The notes below the pieces were generated by a model. The model saw nothing but the letters and a program-made list of their open reading frames with translations. It made no database searches and was not told the origin of the DNA. From a virus (taxonomy: Duplodnaviria; Caudoviricetes), in the IMG/VR virus record IMGVR_UViG_3300044709_000179, positions 32,001 through 96,000 of that record: DNA of 64,000 nt. One strand, 5' to 3'. The position numbers were made by a program, and so were the translations under genes. Shown piece after piece: positions 46,903-64,000 of the stretch (its first letter is position 1; each line of letters opens with the position of its first letter).

Positions 46903-47097
46903 TCACCCGGCGTTACCGCCACCAACCCCCTCCCTCGCCGTCCAGACCACCCACTGCCCGCACCCACCGCACCGCGACTGCACGTGCGTTCGCGCCTTCT
47001 CCGCCATCCACGCGCTGCGCGCCGCGTACCCGTCGGGCATGTCGGCGTGCACGGCGACGTTCGGACACGGCTGCGGCTGGAACCGGTCGGCGGTCAC
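46903..47097 (-). CDS. Small Zn-ribbon protein
   Basis: QSRCGGCGQWVVW; GTGA-coupled. Confidence 0.6.
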   Translation of the reverse strand: MTADRFQPQPCPNVAVHADMPDGYAARSAWMAEKARTHVQSRCGGCGQWVVWTAREGVGGGNAG

Positions 47098-47528
47098 GGC
47101 TGCACCTCGGCCGGCTTCAGCCACCGCTCGAACATGCCCCAGATGACGGTCGCCCCAACGGCCTTGTCGCCGCGCCGCGCGTCCCGCCGTTCACACTCCT
47201 CCGGCGGCACGCCGGCCAGATCCACCACCTCGACGGTCGCGCCGACCAGTTCGGCGACTCCCCGCAGGCCGTTCATGGCCCGGTCGGACAGGTTCGTGTC
47301 GTCACACACCACGTCCCAGCCCGATTCCAGCAGCGCCGCCACCGCCGTGTGCTGTGCCGTGGTTACCGCCGACTCGTGCCGGTCGACGCCGGTCCAGCCA
47401 CCGAACATCATGGCCCGCAGGCCATCGCGATTGACCCGCGTCCGCTTGCCGGAGTCTTCGGCGACCCAAGCGCGGGCCCACGTGGTTTTGCCACTAGCCG
47501 GAAGCCCGCGGGTAAGTACGAGTTTCAC
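47094..47528 (-). CDS. AAA_33 / polynucleotide-kinase-like P-loop kinase
   Basis: RGLPASGKTTWA, RVNRD, VVCDDTNL, CERRDARR. Confidence 0.85.
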   Translation of the reverse strand: MKLVLTRGLPASGKTTWARAWVAEDSGKRTRVNRDGLRAMMFGGWTGVDRHESAVTTAQHTAVAALLESGWDVVCDDTNLSDRAMNGLRGVAELVGATVEVVDLAGVPPEECERRDARRGDKAVGATVIWGMFERWLKPAEVQP

Positions 47529-47767
47529 GTTGCCCCTCCTCGAACGCTCGCCGCCGGCCGGGTGAACTGCCGCAGCGATGCCTGCAACCAGACCAGCAGT
47601 GAGCACAGCGCGTCGACGTCCGGCCGCTGTCCGTCGGCGAGTCGCGTGAAGGTGGACGGTGATAGTCCGGTTTCAGCGGCCACCTGCCTCCACGACAGCC
47701 CGTCCTCGCCGCGCTGCTGGTCGAGGGCGGCGTAGAGCGCGGCGACGTTGAGGACGTGGCGGGCCAT
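47525..47767 (-). CDS. XRE-family HTH protein
   Basis: LSWRQVAAETGLSPSTFTRL. Confidence 0.85.
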   Translation of the reverse strand: MARHVLNVAALYAALDQQRGEDGLSWRQVAAETGLSPSTFTRLADGQRPDVDALCSLLVWLQASLRQFTRPAASVRGGAT

Positions 47768-48516
47768 CAGGCGGCGCCGCCGAATACGTCCAGGTCGTAC
47801 AGGTCCAACTGGCGACCGTCCACAGACCGAGGTTGGTTCTCCAGCGCCCGGCGACGAGCACTCACGACAGCCTCACTGATCTGCCGTGTCGAAGCGGTAG
47901 CCAGCCAGTCGGCCAGATAGCCGACCTGGATCCGGTCCAGCCACCCCAGCACCTTCGGCAGGTTGACGTCAGGCCCAAACACCAGATAGGTGCCATCCAC
48001 CGAGTCGCAGCCGATCAGGCGGGCGTACCAGAACCGGTTCCACGAGTTGACCCGCCCCATGTGTGTCCACTTGCCCCGACGGTTGGCTTCGGCGACCAAC
48101 TCCGCGGCCGGTTCGCCCAATTTCCAGGCCGTGTCGCCCCCGACGAACAGGGCGTCGAAGTCGCTCCACGGCACTGTCAGATCTTCGAGCCCATTCTGCG
48201 CGACAAACGCCACCCGGTAGCCGAGGCTGCGAATCTTGTCGAAGAACGGCGTTGAGCGGGCTAGGGTGGCCACGGCGTCGCCGAGGACGTCAGGGGCTGT
48301 CGCAAACACGCAGTACTCCAGATAGGAGCGCCGCCTGAGCCAGTCCAGGAAGCCACTGTCGCCGGGGTACCCCTTGCCGAAGCATCCATTGTCGACGCAG
48401 TGCGTGACCCCGCCAGGGATGAGGTTGCCCTGCGCCGGAGTGTCGATGGCGCCGAGCCGACCGGCCAACATGGCGCTAGTCACGGGCCCCGTGCTCGGAT
48501 TCGCGAAGTACCACAT
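47767..48516 (-). CDS. dpdA: DpdA-like 7-deazaguanine DNA transglycosylase (TGT fold)
   Basis: VDNGCF, APDVLGD, VAQNG, FVGG, HMGRVN, DSVDGT; directly after queD. Confidence 0.75.
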   Translation of the reverse strand: MWYFANPSTGPVTSAMLAGRLGAIDTPAQGNLIPGGVTHCVDNGCFGKGYPGDSGFLDWLRRRSYLEYCVFATAPDVLGDAVATLARSTPFFDKIRSLGYRVAFVAQNGLEDLTVPWSDFDALFVGGDTAWKLGEPAAELVAEANRRGKWTHMGRVNSWNRFWYARLIGCDSVDGTYLVFGPDVNLPKVLGWLDRIQVGYLADWLATASTRQISEAVVSARRRALENQPRSVDGRQLDLYDLDVFGGAA

Positions 48517-48874
48517 CGTCGTCACCGCCCCGGTAGGTGACACCCGACGTGCACGTCTCCCGAACGGTCACCGCCGCCAGCGGCAACGCTCCGGCGAGCC
48601 GTTCCCAGATCCAGCGGGCGACGTTCTCGCTGGTTGGGTTTTCCAGGCCCGCCACCTCGTTGAGGAACCGGTGGTCGAGGGCGTCGGCGACCGGCGCAAA
48701 CGCCACCTTGACCTCAGCGAAATCCATGACCCAGCCGCGTTCCGGGTCCACCTCGCCGCGGATGCGCACCTCGGCGCGGTAGGAGTGCCCATGCAGTCGC
48801 CCGCACTTGTGCGGCGTTGGCACGTTGGGTAGGTAGTGGGCAGCTTCGAACGTGAACTCTTTGAAGATCTCCAT
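48476..48874 (-). CDS. queD: 6-carboxy-5,6,7,8-tetrahydropterin synthase
   Basis: FTFEAAHYL, CGRLHGHSY, DF, LDHRFLN, NPTSEN, ET. Confidence 0.95.
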   Translation of the reverse strand: MEIFKEFTFEAAHYLPNVPTPHKCGRLHGHSYRAEVRIRGEVDPERGWVMDFAEVKVAFAPVADALDHRFLNEVAGLENPTSENVARWIWERLAGALPLAAVTVRETCTSGVTYRGGDDDVVLRESEHGARD

Positions 48875-49512
48875 CAGCGCACTCCGATGAGTTTGTGGGT
48901 CTGAATGCTGAGCGACCACTGCGGGTGCGCAAGGCAGTAGTCGATGGCGGCCCGCGTGTTGGCGGTCGCGTCGGGGCCGTCCATCGGTTGCAGCCGGAAC
49001 GACGCGAAGTCGAGGTGGGCATACCGCTCGGGCTCGGCGCCAACCTGCGGGTAGACGAGCTTCAGTTCGTCGCCTGCCGCGACAATAAGGTCCGTCCCGG
49101 CTTTCGGACTCACGCACACCCAGTCAATGCCGAGTGGCAGCGGCAGGATGCCGTTGGTCTCGATGGCCACCTCGAAGCCGCGTGCGGTCAGCGCCGCCAT
49201 GGCGCCGTCGTCGAGTTGAAGCGCCGGCTCACCGCCGGTGCAAACGACGAACGGGCGCCCGCCGCCGGGCCAGCAAGAGGCAACCGCGTTGGCCAACTCC
49301 TCCGGCGTGGCGAACCGTCCGCCGTCCGGCCCAACGTCCACGAAGTCGGTATCGCACCACAGGGAGCACGACGGGCCGCGCTTGCGGTCCCGCTCGTGGC
49401 CGGTCCACAGGTTGCAGGAGGTGAACCGGCAGAAGACGGCGGGACGTCCGGCGTGGTGACCCTCGCCCTGCAAGGTGTAGAAGATTTCCTTGACGCGGTA
49501 GCGGGTTCTCAT
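48874..49512 (-). CDS. queE: 7-carboxy-7-deazaguanine synthase (radical SAM)
   Basis: [14 protein letters not shown]...C...CDTDF, TGGEP, ETNG, VSPK, QTHK. Confidence 0.95.
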
Positions 49513-50171
49513 CGGGCTACCGCCGGATCGTCGATGCCGACAGCCGCGAAGCCGGCGGCGCGAGACCGGCAGGCGTCGCACCGCGCGCACGGCTTCTCGT
49601 CGATCGGGTCGTAGCAGGACCACGTGGCGGCGAAGTTCACGCCGAGGTCGAGTCCGAGTCGGATAACGGCCGCCTTGTCGAGGTTGATGAGCGGCGTGTG
49701 GATCTGGACCGGTTCGCGGGTGGCGAGGCCTGCCAGTCGCGCCCATGCGTCGAAGTAGGCGGGTCGGCAGTCGGGGTAGCCCTCGTGGTCCTCCTGGTTG
49801 GCACCGATGAAGATGTCGCGGGCACCGACGGTCTCCGCGAAGGCGAGGGCGTACGACAGGAAGATGGTGTTGCGGGCGGGGACGTAGGTGGCGGGAATTC
49901 CGGCGGTGGGCTCTGTCGGCACCGCGATGGCGGAATCCGTGAGCGCAGACCCGCCAAATGCGCGCAAGCCGACGTCAACGTCGCGGTGACGACGCTCTAC
50001 CCCCGCGCTCCGAGCAGTTCGGCAGGCTGCGGCGAGTTCGATGCCGTGGCGCTGGCCATAGCGGAACGATAGGGGGTGCACGGCGAAGCCCTCCGACTGG
50101 GCAATGGCGAGCGTGACGGCGGAGTCGAGGCCCCCACTGAGGAGCACGACTGCGGGATGTTGCTGACTCAT
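49509..50171 (-). CDS. queC: 7-cyano-7-deazaguanine synthase
   Basis: SGGLDS, YGQRH, YVPARN, YPDCR, TWSCY...CARCDAC. Confidence 0.96.
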
Positions 50172-53247: not shown

Positions 53248-53720
53248 GACGGCGCTCCAGCCACATGCCGTTCCAGGGCCCGCGTCGCCGCGACCACGGA
53301 TGCCAGCACCTCGCCGCGCAGCCGATCCGCCTCGCCGTCGGGCAGTGTCCGCCAGCCGCGCAGGTCGTACATGAGCTTGGTGAACGTCCCAGACAGGCGC
53401 TGGGTGTCCCAGATGGCCACGCCGTCGACCAGCAGCGTGTAGTGGTGCGGCCATGCGTCGCGGAGGGCCTCGCGCCACGTCGCCTGGATCATGGGCCATT
53501 CGGTGACGTGGTTGGCGGGCTTCCATGTACCGGAGTCGTCCGTGCCGAAGTAGGCGCAGCCGTCGTTCCAGACGGACGGGTGGTTGAGCCGGCCGTACGA
53601 CTCGCCGCCGTAGGTCCACAGGGGCAGGTCGGCGGTCGGACCCAACGCCTCGTCGAGGCGTTGGCCGAGGATGGACGGCAGGTCCATGTCAAAATCGTCG
53701 GCCCAGAAGCACTCGGTCAT
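53244..53720 (-). CDS. Hypothetical protein
   Basis: ATGA-coupled. Confidence 0.6.
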   Translation of the reverse strand: MTECFWADDFDMDLPSILGQRLDEALGPTADLPLWTYGGESYGRLNHPSVWNDGCAYFGTDDSGTWKPANHVTEWPMIQATWREALRDAWPHHYTLLVDGVAIWDTQRLSGTFTKLMYDLRGWRTLPDGEADRLRGEVLASVVAATRALERHVAGAPS

Positions 53721-54283
53721 GACGATCCCACCAAGGCACCACACCGGACCCAGTCCACCGACAGCCCGGCGTCCATTGCCGCTACGTTCTCGTCCCAGTT
53801 GTCGCCGTCGAACGCGTCGAGCACGACCTGCACGCGGTTGCCACCATCGGCCAGCATCGACTCCACGTCGCCGTAGAACCACACCTGTACGCGGTTCTCT
53901 TCGCACCAGCGTTCGGCCACCACGTCCGCGGCTGTGAACTGGCAGCGGGTGGTGACCTCCATGCGCGGGTGGTGTGAGTGCAGCACATCGAGGCGGTGTC
54001 GGATCGTCGTGACCATGTCGGGCAACTCGGGAATGTCGACCCCGCCAAGGACGAGCACGCGGAACGGCGCGTCAAGGACGGAGCCGATCTGGTCGTACAG
54101 CGAGCGCAGCTCGGCCTCGGTGAACGACACGGAGTGGCTGGTGGTGCCGGGCCGGAAGCCGCGCGGCGGTCCGATGCGCACCTTGTACGGCTTGGGCTCG
54201 CCGTCGTGGAACGCGGCGTCCGGCTCAAGGTGGAGGCAGTCGCGGTCGGGGAGAGTCCACGGGAGCGGGTGCTGGTAGGTCAC
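53717..54283 (-). CDS. Hypothetical protein
   Basis: GTGA-coupled. Confidence 0.6.
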   Translation of the reverse strand: MTYQHPLPWTLPDRDCLHLEPDAAFHDGEPKPYKVRIGPPRGFRPGTTSHSVSFTEAELRSLYDQIGSVLDAPFRVLVLGGVDIPELPDMVTTIRHRLDVLHSHHPRMEVTTRCQFTAADVVAERWCEENRVQVWFYGDVESMLADGGNRVQVVLDAFDGDNWDENVAAMDAGLSVDWVRCGALVGSS

Positions 54284-54685: not shown

Positions 54686-54892
54686 TCAGGCCTTCTCACG
54701 CCCCGGCTCGTGCATGCCCCGCGCCAGCGCGATCACGTCGGCGCGCATCGTGTCCAGCGGCGTCGCGTCGTCGACCGACGACATGTAGCGGGTGACCGCT
54801 TCGAGGCGGTTACGGCACACCTGAGCCTCGTGGCGGGCTGCGTCAGGGGGGGGGTTGGTGCGGGTGAGCTCGAACGGGAGTGGGGCGGTCAT
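54686..54892 (-). CDS. Hypothetical protein
   Basis: ATGA overlap with clamp gene. Confidence 0.5.
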   Translation of the reverse strand: MTAPLPFELTRTNPPPDAARHEAQVCRNRLEAVTRYMSSVDDATPLDTMRADVIALARGMHEPGREKA

Positions 54893-56046
54893 GAGCCGGG
54901 CCGCATCGACGCGATGAGCTGTCGGTGGGTGGGCTTCGGGGACTCCTCGTCGTTATCCAGGACGGCTGCCGAGTCGAGAACGAATGGCGCCCCGCGGGTT
55001 GCGGCGAACGTCAGAACCACCTCGGTACCGGCCTCGGCGGTAAGCGCCGCCAGTAGGTAGCGCACGCTCATGGCGACCTTGGTTGGCGGTCCGTCATAGG
55101 CGCAAGCGATCTCCTCGGCCGTGGAGGCGTCCTGCCCCGAGCCGCACACCTGCACGACGCCCTCCGCGAACGTGAGCGTCACCGACGGGAAGTCTTTGGC
55201 TGCGGTCATCAGGCGCACCCGGTCCAGCACCGGCTTGAGGTCGGCCACCGCGACCCGCGCAGGCGTCCGTGACCGCTCCGGGAAGATGCCTCGCAGGTTG
55301 GGGTGGAACGGCTCACCGATCTGGCGGACCACCACGCTACGGGTCGCGGTTGACAGCCCCAGCAGCGTGTCAGTGCACCCGATGGTGACGGATCCGTCGT
55401 GCGCGAGGTCTGCGGCGACCGCCAGGAACTCGCCACCGTGCGGCAGTGCAGAGACGGCGTCCGTCGCGTGGGGCTGCCATGGAATGTCGATGTAGGCGGC
55501 GCGGTACCGGTCCGACGCCTCGACGGTCAGCAGGTCACCGAACTTCAGGTTGATGCCCGCCAGTGATGGCACGCCCTTTTCTCCGGTCACGTCGCACGAG
55601 ACGCCGACCAGCTTGACCGCCCGGGCCAATGCCGAGGCGTCCACCTCGCCTACGGTCGGCGGCAGTGCCGGGATGGTCACGAAGTCCTCAGCGATCATCA
55701 ACGGCAGCGTCACCTTGGCCCGCCCGCACGTGATCGCCAACGAGTTGCCCTCGACGGTGGCTTGGACCGGCTTGTCGGGCAGCGTGCCCATCAGGTCGGC
55801 CAGCAGGCGCCCGGAGACGAGCACCTTGCCGTCGGAGCCCTCGACGTCCACCGTGGCCGTGGCGCTGGCGTTCTCGTTGTAGCCGGCCACCGTCAACACG
55901 CTGTCCGCGACGGTCAGCAGGATGCCGCCGTGGGCCGGGATGGTCGGGCGTGATGAGACGCGCTTGGCGGCCCAGGTAACGGCGCTGGCGAATGCGGTGC
56001 GGTCGGCAGTGAAGACGAGGCCAGTGCTGGTCAGGGTGGCGGTCAC
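54889..56046 (-). CDS. dnaN: DNA polymerase III beta sliding clamp (divergent)
   Basis: RPTIPAHGGILL, GKVLVSGRLL, ASDRYR, C-terminal SMR; three-domain length. Confidence 0.88.
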   Translation of the reverse strand: MTATLTSTGLVFTADRTAFASAVTWAAKRVSSRPTIPAHGGILLTVADSVLTVAGYNENASATATVDVEGSDGKVLVSGRLLADLMGTLPDKPVQATVEGNSLAITCGRAKVTLPLMIAEDFVTIPALPPTVGEVDASALARAVKLVGVSCDVTGEKGVPSLAGINLKFGDLLTVEASDRYRAAYIDIPWQPHATDAVSALPHGGEFLAVAADLAHDGSVTIGCTDTLLGLSTATRSVVVRQIGEPFHPNLRGIFPERSRTPARVAVADLKPVLDRVRLMTAAKDFPSVTLTFAEGVVQVCGSGQDASTAEEIACAYDGPPTKVAMSVRYLLAALTAEAGTEVVLTFAATRGAPFVLDSAAVLDNDEESPKPTHRQLIASMRPGS

Positions 56047-63554: not shown

Positions 63555-63992
63555 TCAGGAGTCGGTGGGGCGCGCGGCGAGCAGCACATCCCAGTCGTAG
63601 AAGGGAATCGGGTCGGCGTGCCGGTCGCCGAGGCTGCGCGGAAAGGCCTCCAGCGTCTCGTTGAGGAAGCGGCGTGTCGGGTCGAACGGCAGGTCCACCA
63701 GCCCGACCTCGGACCGGTTCGACAGGTGCAGGCGCAGCACCTGCTCGCCGCCGACCAGCAGCGGCCACATCTGCACGTCGCCCTTGCGGAACGTCTGCGC
63801 CGCCACGAGCGCGTCCACCATGACGTCGCGGGACAGCAGCCACGGCACCTCATCGCCGCCGACATAGAACATCGCGCGCACAGTCAGGGGGTCCTCCACC
63901 TGGAACGCCAGGCGGGCCTTTATCGGCGTAGCGCTGCCGCCGATGACGTCGCGACTCACCGCGACGAACTCGCGGACGATGACGCGGGTCAT
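63555..63992 (-). CDS. SsgA-like sporulation/cell-division protein (SALP)
   Basis: EDPLTVRAMF...VPWLLSRD...GDVQMWP...LRLHLS...RFLNET. Confidence 0.8.
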   Translation of the reverse strand: MTRVIVREFVAVSRDVIGGSATPIKARLAFQVEDPLTVRAMFYVGGDEVPWLLSRDVMVDALVAAQTFRKGDVQMWPLLVGGEQVLRLHLSNRSEVGLVDLPFDPTRRFLNETLEAFPRSLGDRHADPIPFYDWDVLLAARPTDS

Positions 63993-64000
63993 TGCGCACC

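Follow-up and report, generated by a model that had tools for sequence, protein, structure and literature searches.

This study concerns a candidate clamp-binding motif at the C-terminus of a DpdA-like transglycosylase encoded by a virus of the class Caudoviricetes. The DNA analysed (the window, 64,000 nucleotides) comprises bases 32001-96000 of the 118,071-bp IMG/VR virus record IMGVR_UViG_3300044709_000179. The record has a G+C content of 68%, is 97% complete (CheckV) and carries nearly all of its genes on the minus strand, where every window feature named below also lies. Close to its 3′ end the DpdA-like gene (47767..48543) encodes QLDLY, a candidate β-clamp-binding motif (residues 245-249; 47797..47811), and the same phage encodes a β sliding clamp of its own (dnaN; 54889..56046). 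Equivalent motifs recur at the C-termini of DpdA-like homologues from phages of three host phyla.

A DpdA-like gene at the end of a queC-queE-queD run

The DpdA-like gene belongs to phrog_15826, which carries no functional annotation, and is the last gene in a queC-queE-queD-dpdA-like run of overlapping genes. Directly upstream of it, and mutually overlapping, are queD (48476..49117; PTPS family, 7e-38), a queE-like radical SAM gene (48874..49746), queC (49509..50171; PF06508, 2.1e-69) and a thymidylate kinase gene. The queD match begins at residue 83 of a listed open reading frame (ORF) that has a long 5′ extension; the queE-like match falls just under the Pfam cut-off, and its assignment leans on context. 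On the downstream side, the ATG of a small helix-turn-helix gene (47525..47767) overlaps the DpdA-like stop codon (TGATG). The start of the DpdA-like protein is uncertain, with the listed 258-amino-acid ORF running from a GTG at 48543 and the public gene call from M25. Because homologues align from M10, the true start is likely the ATG at 48516 (MWYFANP), as judged by this alignment; that codon overlaps the end of queD by about 40 nucleotides.

An AlphaFold2 model of the protein was built with 86 homologues. Residues 10-206 (47926..48516) form a TIM-barrel core with a predicted local distance difference test score (pLDDT) of 94-98, in which D51, D85, Q116, H161, R164 and D183 are invariant among the 86 homologues. 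The protein ends shortly past the barrel. A lineage-specific helical extension occupies residues 207-239 (47827..47925), with helices modelled at 209-216 and 219-235 (pLDDT 72-86), and is followed by a predicted disordered C-terminal tail (residues 240-258; 47770..47826; pLDDT <50) that contains QLDLY. A search of 5.8 billion clusters found residues 207-258 in only one other protein, P0002. The arrangement foreseen in the original prediction, a helical extension followed by QLDLY at 47811-47797, is thus recovered in the model, and the coordinates are exact.

Genomic context is the strongest argument for the identity of the enzyme. The record contains no canonical tRNA-guanine transglycosylase (TGT), FolE or QueF, and PF01702 has no match anywhere in it; the DpdA-like gene is therefore the only candidate insertase, and 7-cyano-7-deazaguanine (preQ0), made with the help of host FolE, would be the base expected. 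In relatives that have QueC, the gene lies within ~3.5 kb of the DpdA-like homologue in every case (6/6). Actinophage homologues are annotated by SEA-PHAGES as 'DpdA-like tRNA-guanine transglycosylase'. When the family profile was aligned by hhalign with gp2 of phage Rosebush (DpdA), its two most conserved motifs were paired with their counterparts, DNGCF with DSGAF and APDVVGD with ALDVIGD. Fold searches returned, among their best matches, the archaeal-type enzyme ArcTGT (1iq8, Z 13.9), the TGT-like Cap10 (9ntn, 13.9), bacterial TGT (3unt, 13.5), QTRT2 (6fv5, 13.2) and the DNA preQ0 insertase DpdA (7ui4, 12.9), and Foldseek matched the core to TIM barrels at E ~1e-4. A sequence search of the PDB with the family profile gave a single match, 'Prod 1' (E 0.046), which was rejected as chance. 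A zinc-binding CxCxxC...H subdomain is a structural feature of TGT enzymes; the 258-residue sequence contains no CxCxxC motif and has four scattered cysteines (C49, C54, C78 and C179).

Several observations weigh against a DpdA assignment. The protein has no match to the Pfam TGT family model at E ≤0.01 and none in NCBIfam, and the alignment to Rosebush DpdA is weak (probability 49%, E 1.8e-4, 114 columns). The fold scores of TGT-family chains tie with those of pyruvate kinase and ribulose-phosphate epimerase barrels (Z 14) and, because unrelated barrels score equally well, family assignment cannot be made by fold alone. QueC is present in only 6/50 related records (2/22 near-complete ones) and lacking in the other 44. 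Most family members are accordingly 'singletons' without a phage preQ0 pathway. Singleton DpdAs are known, and phage Orion, which has one, carried no modification according to PMC6884629; the same paper puts 2′-deoxy-preQ0 (dPreQ0) at ~28% of G in Rosebush DNA. From operon context and weak remote homology we consider it quite probable that the window gene encodes a DpdA-like preQ0 insertase. Extension of this assignment to the whole family is unproven.

A clamp-binding-like motif at the C-terminus

The bacterial clamp-binding consensus, QL(S/D)LF, is usually C-terminal and acknowledged to be variable (PMC9690074). The C-terminus of the window protein reads ...RQLDLYDLDVFGGAA / ...SVDGRQLDLYDLDVFGGAA, with Q245-Y249 encoded at 47811-47797. 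QLDLY agrees with the consensus at Q1, L2, D3 and L4, that is, at four of five positions, and has an atypical Y at the fifth. The tail of P0002 ends ...DERQMDLFDLDVVGGAA and has QMDLF at this place. No other ORF among the 162 coding-like ones of the record has a motif of the Q..L[FW]/QL.L[FWY] type within its final 25 residues.

Tails of about 350 homologues were inspected, most of them from proteins of ~200-210 residues. The typical tail ends a few residues past the last core helix, as in SRVENQLSLFA, VNDQPALFGGAA, EDQQPLFI, QGSLWEAS and QLPLFA, and in most tails the motif finishes 0-6 residues from the C-terminus. The pattern Q..L[FW] was found in 76/262 unique tails of the ~200-residue family and in only 4/321 cores; 500 composition-preserving shuffles of the tails averaged 4.7 and never exceeded 15 (~16-fold enrichment). 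The original prediction had named conservation of C-terminal QLxLF-like motifs in DpdA homologues as a check, and these counts agree with it. When patterns of three fixed residues out of five were enumerated with no prior motif, using 86 short-tailed representatives of 50%-identity clusters, the top ranks were QP.L, Q..LF, P.L.L and Q..LW; the pentapeptide or hexapeptide form was matched by 37 of these 86 representatives. The family consensus is Q-[P/G/L]-[A/T/S]-L-[F/W].

The position of the motif is kept when the distance from the core is not. Linkers range from ~8 to >45 residues with the motif remaining C-terminal, and the long-linker variants (P0010, P0016, P0028, P0116, P0138, P0149, the window protein and P0002) hold it at the far end; examples are ...VGQASLWEVPS (P0010), ...IPQDGLWGEVVR (P0016), ...PQLALPFGDVA (P0138) and ...HQISLFALGA (P0149). 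The same position hosts both pentapeptide (Q..LF) and hexapeptide forms (QPALEL, EPVLNF, QPTFDW). Position 5 is F in 62 instances and W in 21, an alternation that requires two base changes (TTC to TGG) and therefore indicates selection on the protein. In the model of a short homologue, the last helix frays out at its end, where QLSLF lies (pLDDT 52-76). The motif is also kept in phages of three host phyla, Actinobacteria, Alphaproteobacteria and Cyanobacteria: gp10 of Erythrobacter phage R6L ends ...QADLFAPALR, Synechococcus phage Ssp-JY42 ends ...TPTLFDTEQAA and Roseobacter phage CRP-701 ends ...NNQPIFKL. The far-end position, the two forms, the F/W alternation and the low pLDDT argue for a short linear motif and not an element of the fold. 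The proposal that QLDLY lies near the clamp-binding consensus is supported: the tail motif, conserved in the family, C-terminal and in a segment predicted to be disordered, behaves like a β-clamp-binding short linear motif.

Other features of the family count against a clamp-binding role. The strict pattern is present in only ~30-45% of family tails and is absent from some complete phages, such as ReqiPine5 and Weirdo19. The Y at position 5 of the window protein is rare (2/85 motif instances in the family). Rosebush DpdA has no Q..LF tail though its phage carries dPreQ0. Finally, the family sequences are related and the counts are not independent events, although representatives of 50%-identity clusters give the same answer.

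Choice of clamp and alternative explanations

The phage dnaN encodes a protein of 385 residues that matches the N-terminal (PF00712; 84 bits, 1.2e-23) and C-terminal (PF02768; 41.8 bits, 1.1e-10) DNA_pol3_beta domains above their cut-offs, with the central domain of this three-domain architecture under the cut-off at 17 bits. It matches phrog_947 at 1.5e-56 and, over its full length, the solved mycobacterial β clamps at E ~1e-47, so that the divergent dnaN reported at 54889-56046 in the original prediction is borne out. The protein falls in a small diverged clade (P0272-P0277); used as a single-protein query, it found no relatives in viral contigs. Aligned to E. coli β, several equivalents of the peptide-binding cleft are kept, namely L155, T172 (S), R176, P242, V247 (I), Y323, V360 (L), V361 (I), M364 and R365, and others are changed (L177A, R246G, N320S, M362A and P363S). 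The roles of these E. coli residues are those we take from published clamp-peptide structures. Judged from the alignment, the cleft looks retained but remodelled, and this is compatible both with co-adaptation of the clamp and the unusual tail and with weaker binding. No match to PF07733, PF00476 or PF00136 (PolC/DnaE, PolA and PolB) was obtained anywhere in the 118,071-bp record, extending to the whole record the earlier remark that no DNA polymerase is visible. Since a phage clamp is present without a phage polymerase, use of the host replicase is implied.

A comparison with related phages was informative about the partner of the tail. Among 50 related virus records, PF00712 was found in 6 and phrog_947 in 7. 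Within the 22 near-complete relatives (≥90% complete), a clamp was present in only 4, and 18 lacked any clamp detectable with these two models. Where the tail of a clamp-less near-complete relative could be read, at least 9 of 17 carried the pentapeptide or hexapeptide motif and 2 more an LF/LW remnant; the motif is carried by 3 of the 4 that encode a clamp. Because clamp-less relatives retain it, the motif is independent of a phage clamp, and host DnaN would be the usual partner if a clamp is bound. For the family as a whole, host DnaN is the most likely partner; in this phage the tail may bind either of the two clamps, host or phage, or both. An excess of clamp genes among the relatives was considered as support for a phage clamp and rejected, as only 7/50 records have one and there is no baseline in comparable phages.

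A connection with replication is independently hinted at by the gene neighbourhood of the DpdA-like family. In the seven clamp-encoding relatives, the clamp and DpdA-like genes are 1-12 kb apart. In Vibrio phage R29Z (L084:1480-2064) and E. coli phages phiG7 and SHIN8 (L082:1375-1967 in phiG7, and likewise in SHIN8), a distant homologue lies directly between the phrog_947 clamp and DNA polymerase genes. In phiG7 and SHIN8 the annotation divides the homologue between two overlapping ORFs of 94 and 109 residues, so that a frameshift or a split gene may be involved; in R29Z, the DpdA-like gene is immediately followed by one of the SLOG type (phrog_289).

Taken together, these observations favour, on balance, a model in which DpdA-like base exchange is tethered through a clamp-binding tail, and DNA modification is probably tied to replication; both statements are drawn from sequence comparison. 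In this model, a ~200-residue TIM-barrel core of the TGT/DpdA kind, translationally coupled to queC-queE-queD, would exchange G for preQ0 in duplex DNA. Binding to the β clamp would take place in its hydrophobic cleft, through the motif in the disordered tail (QLDLY in the window protein; Q-x-x-L-F/W or Q-x-x-L-x-L/F among relatives). By docking on clamps that stay behind on freshly copied DNA, the enzyme would become concentrated there and, once tethered, could scan duplex DNA one-dimensionally. The two extra helices and ~10-residue spacer of the window protein would lengthen the tether.

The original prediction went further and proposed that tethering through the phage's own clamp could restrict modification to phage DNA. 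Its core, a candidate clamp-binding tail motif, gains strong support from the relatives; restriction by a private clamp is not supported, in view of the clamp-less relatives that keep the motif. A tail that binds the phage clamp only, with base exchange thereby confined to phage DNA, is unlikely, even though an unusual long tail coexists with a clamp in this phage and two other clamp-encoding relatives (L016 and L060) have long tails too. The clade of the window clamp has a remodelled cleft, in which A, A, S and S replace L177, M362, P363 and N320 of the E. coli clamp, and the atypical Y together with the acidic DLDVF that follows it could reflect co-adaptation. However, motif frequency does not visibly differ between clamp-encoding and clamp-less relatives, and the one tail-sharing homologue, P0002, reads QMDLF, whose canonical F fits ordinary clamps. 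At 2.9 kb for P0002 and 2.0 kb for the closest clamp, the contigs are too short for co-inheritance of tail and clamp to show. Moreover, a clamp is loaded on any primed DNA and does not recognise whose DNA it encircles. Selectivity would come more plausibly from timing, phage DNA being what replicates during infection. A combined version, with replication-coupled base exchange across the family and, in this phage, a private co-adapted pair of diverged clamp and elongated QLDLY-DLDVF tail that channels the enzyme to phage replisomes, also appears doubtful.

The remaining alternatives leave the clamp out or give the tail another task. It is improbable that the Q..LF peptide serves a different contact (an oligomer interface, an autoinhibitory latch or another hub protein) and resembles clamp ligands by coincidence. 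TGT-family enzymes act as dimers, the motif of the short homologue is modelled as the end of the last helix and not as coil, and clamp motifs are short and degenerate (PMC9690074); nevertheless, a fixed intramolecular contact would not easily leave the motif C-terminal over such different linker lengths, both models give it low pLDDT, and both forms of clamp ligand occur at the same place. That the tail binds the host clamp chiefly to block it, making the protein a replication inhibitor or hijacker, is very unlikely. Phages do encode clamp-targeting inhibitors and a diverged phage clamp could escape the block, but the motif sits on a conserved enzyme core with invariant acidic residues instead of on a small stand-alone inhibitor, and in most relatives, which have no replacement clamp, a block would halt the phage's own replication. 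Equally remote is a motif with no function in the protein, arising by chance or from nucleotide-level constraint near the overlapping downstream start. The overlap of the stop codon with the next ATG would allow such a constraint, as would the many tails ending GGAA, EEAA or ..AA, which may encode the ribosome-binding site of the next gene. Against this, the window motif lies 27-41 nucleotides upstream of the next start, past the usual distance of a ribosome-binding site, and is kept in low-GC phages of other phyla; the enrichment over shuffles and the F/W alternation likewise point to the protein level. The preferred reading therefore remains a DpdA-like enzyme tethered to clamps through its tail.

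Some further features of the tails and of the record were noted. Family tails very often end GGAA, EEAA, GAA or ..AA. In the window, GGC GGC GCC GCC occurs at 47767-47781, just before the overlapping next start, and may provide the ribosome-binding site and spacer of that gene; the ..AA ends could alternatively be read as an Ala-Ala signal for degradation at the C-terminus. When 18 proteins of the early region were examined for a further clamp client, the only candidate was the N-terminal QHPLPW of a SLOG/YAcAr-like protein (53717-54283; PF10686 below cut-off), which is encoded three genes downstream of dnaN and starts MTYQHPLPWTLP. Its N-terminus resembles ImuB QLPLWG and the N-terminal clamp motifs of the Hda type; the only two homologues found keep HPLPWT(L/M)P but not the Q, and it was not used as evidence. 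Past the small helix-turn-helix gene, two genes downstream of the DpdA-like gene, lies a gene for a polynucleotide-kinase-like P-loop protein (47094-47606; AAA_33; phrog_505). The record also encodes DnaB, a DnaQ/RNase T-like exonuclease, a RuvC-like nuclease and a PD-(D/E)XK protein. An SsgA-like gene in the phage early region (63555-63998; PF04686, 3e-14) belongs to a family typical of sporulating actinomycetes and gives a hint at host range. A megablast search with 14 kb of the window against phage records returned no match.

Implications and comparison with known systems

The suggestion that this coupling had not been described agrees with our literature search, which found no paper joining 7-deazaguanine, or phage DNA modification, to a clamp-binding motif, and none describing DpdA-clamp coupling. 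The word 'clamp' is absent from the 2023 DpdA paper (PMC10516641), no clamp link is drawn where the 2019 paper (PMC6884629) treats replication and polymerases, and the literature naming both DpdA and a clamp appears from titles and abstracts to be unrelated. Three points are new: a canonical bacterial clamp motif is carried by a separate family of short DpdA-like proteins, its conservation spans three host phyla, and most of the phages concerned have neither clamp nor polymerase, an indication that the host clamp is the partner.

How DpdA finds phage DNA and reaches a high modification density is not addressed in PMC10516641, nor in the sections of PMC6884629 concerned with these enzymes. If the model is correct, a clamp-docking peptide would be a concrete answer, the enzyme riding clamps on newly copied DNA much as DNMT1 and UNG2 do with PCNA. 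A DNA-hypermodifying enzyme would then join the list of β-clamp clients, and drugs that occupy the clamp cleft, such as griselimycin, would be predicted to lower phage DNA modification. Conservation across the family brings the question within reach of cultured phages, including Arthrobacter phage Sonali, which has QueC and the motif QDALF, and Erythrobacter phage R6L (QADLF), whereas the virus of the window is uncultured.

Known phage and bacterial DpdA proteins (bDpdA and DpdA1-DpdA4; those of Rosebush, CAjan and 9g; structure 7ui4) share with the DpdA-like protein a preQ0-operon setting and a TIM barrel, and motifs like DSG.F and.DV.GD align with those of Rosebush DpdA. In contrast to them, the DpdA-like core has only ~200 residues, without a Pfam TGT match or CxCxxC, and its phages mostly lack QueC. 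Rosebush gp2 (L085:789-1946) has four copies of GP[HN][LI]H[LQ], one N-terminal and three in its C-terminal third. Insertion of 7-deazaguanine by DpdA is regarded in published work as post-replicative (PMC10516641).

Established β-clamp clients (Pol II/IV/V, Hda, MutS, ImuB and DnaQ) carry the same consensus, as QL[S/D]LF or the hexapeptide QLxLxL, in a terminal, flexible segment. Mycobacterial ImuB uses QLPLWG, with W accepted at position 5 as in the DpdA-like family, and its foci with the clamp are abolished by mutation to AAAAGG or by cleft-binding griselimycin (PMC10421592). These known clients are polymerase, repair and initiation factors, whereas the carrier here is a phage DNA base-exchange enzyme with Y at position 5, for which binding is predicted. 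A closer likeness is offered by Nei2 and XthA of M. tuberculosis, single-base enzymes on duplex DNA that are stimulated or recruited by the actinobacterial β clamp (PMC9690074). They act in host repair and remove bases, whereas the phage enzyme would swap G for preQ0 in the service of anti-restriction.

In eukaryotes, DNMT1 and UNG2 dock on PCNA through PIP (PCNA-interacting peptide) boxes. Although the clamp, the motif and the chemistry all differ, the logic of the proposed system would be the same: a short peptide puts a DNA-modifying enzyme on the clamp.

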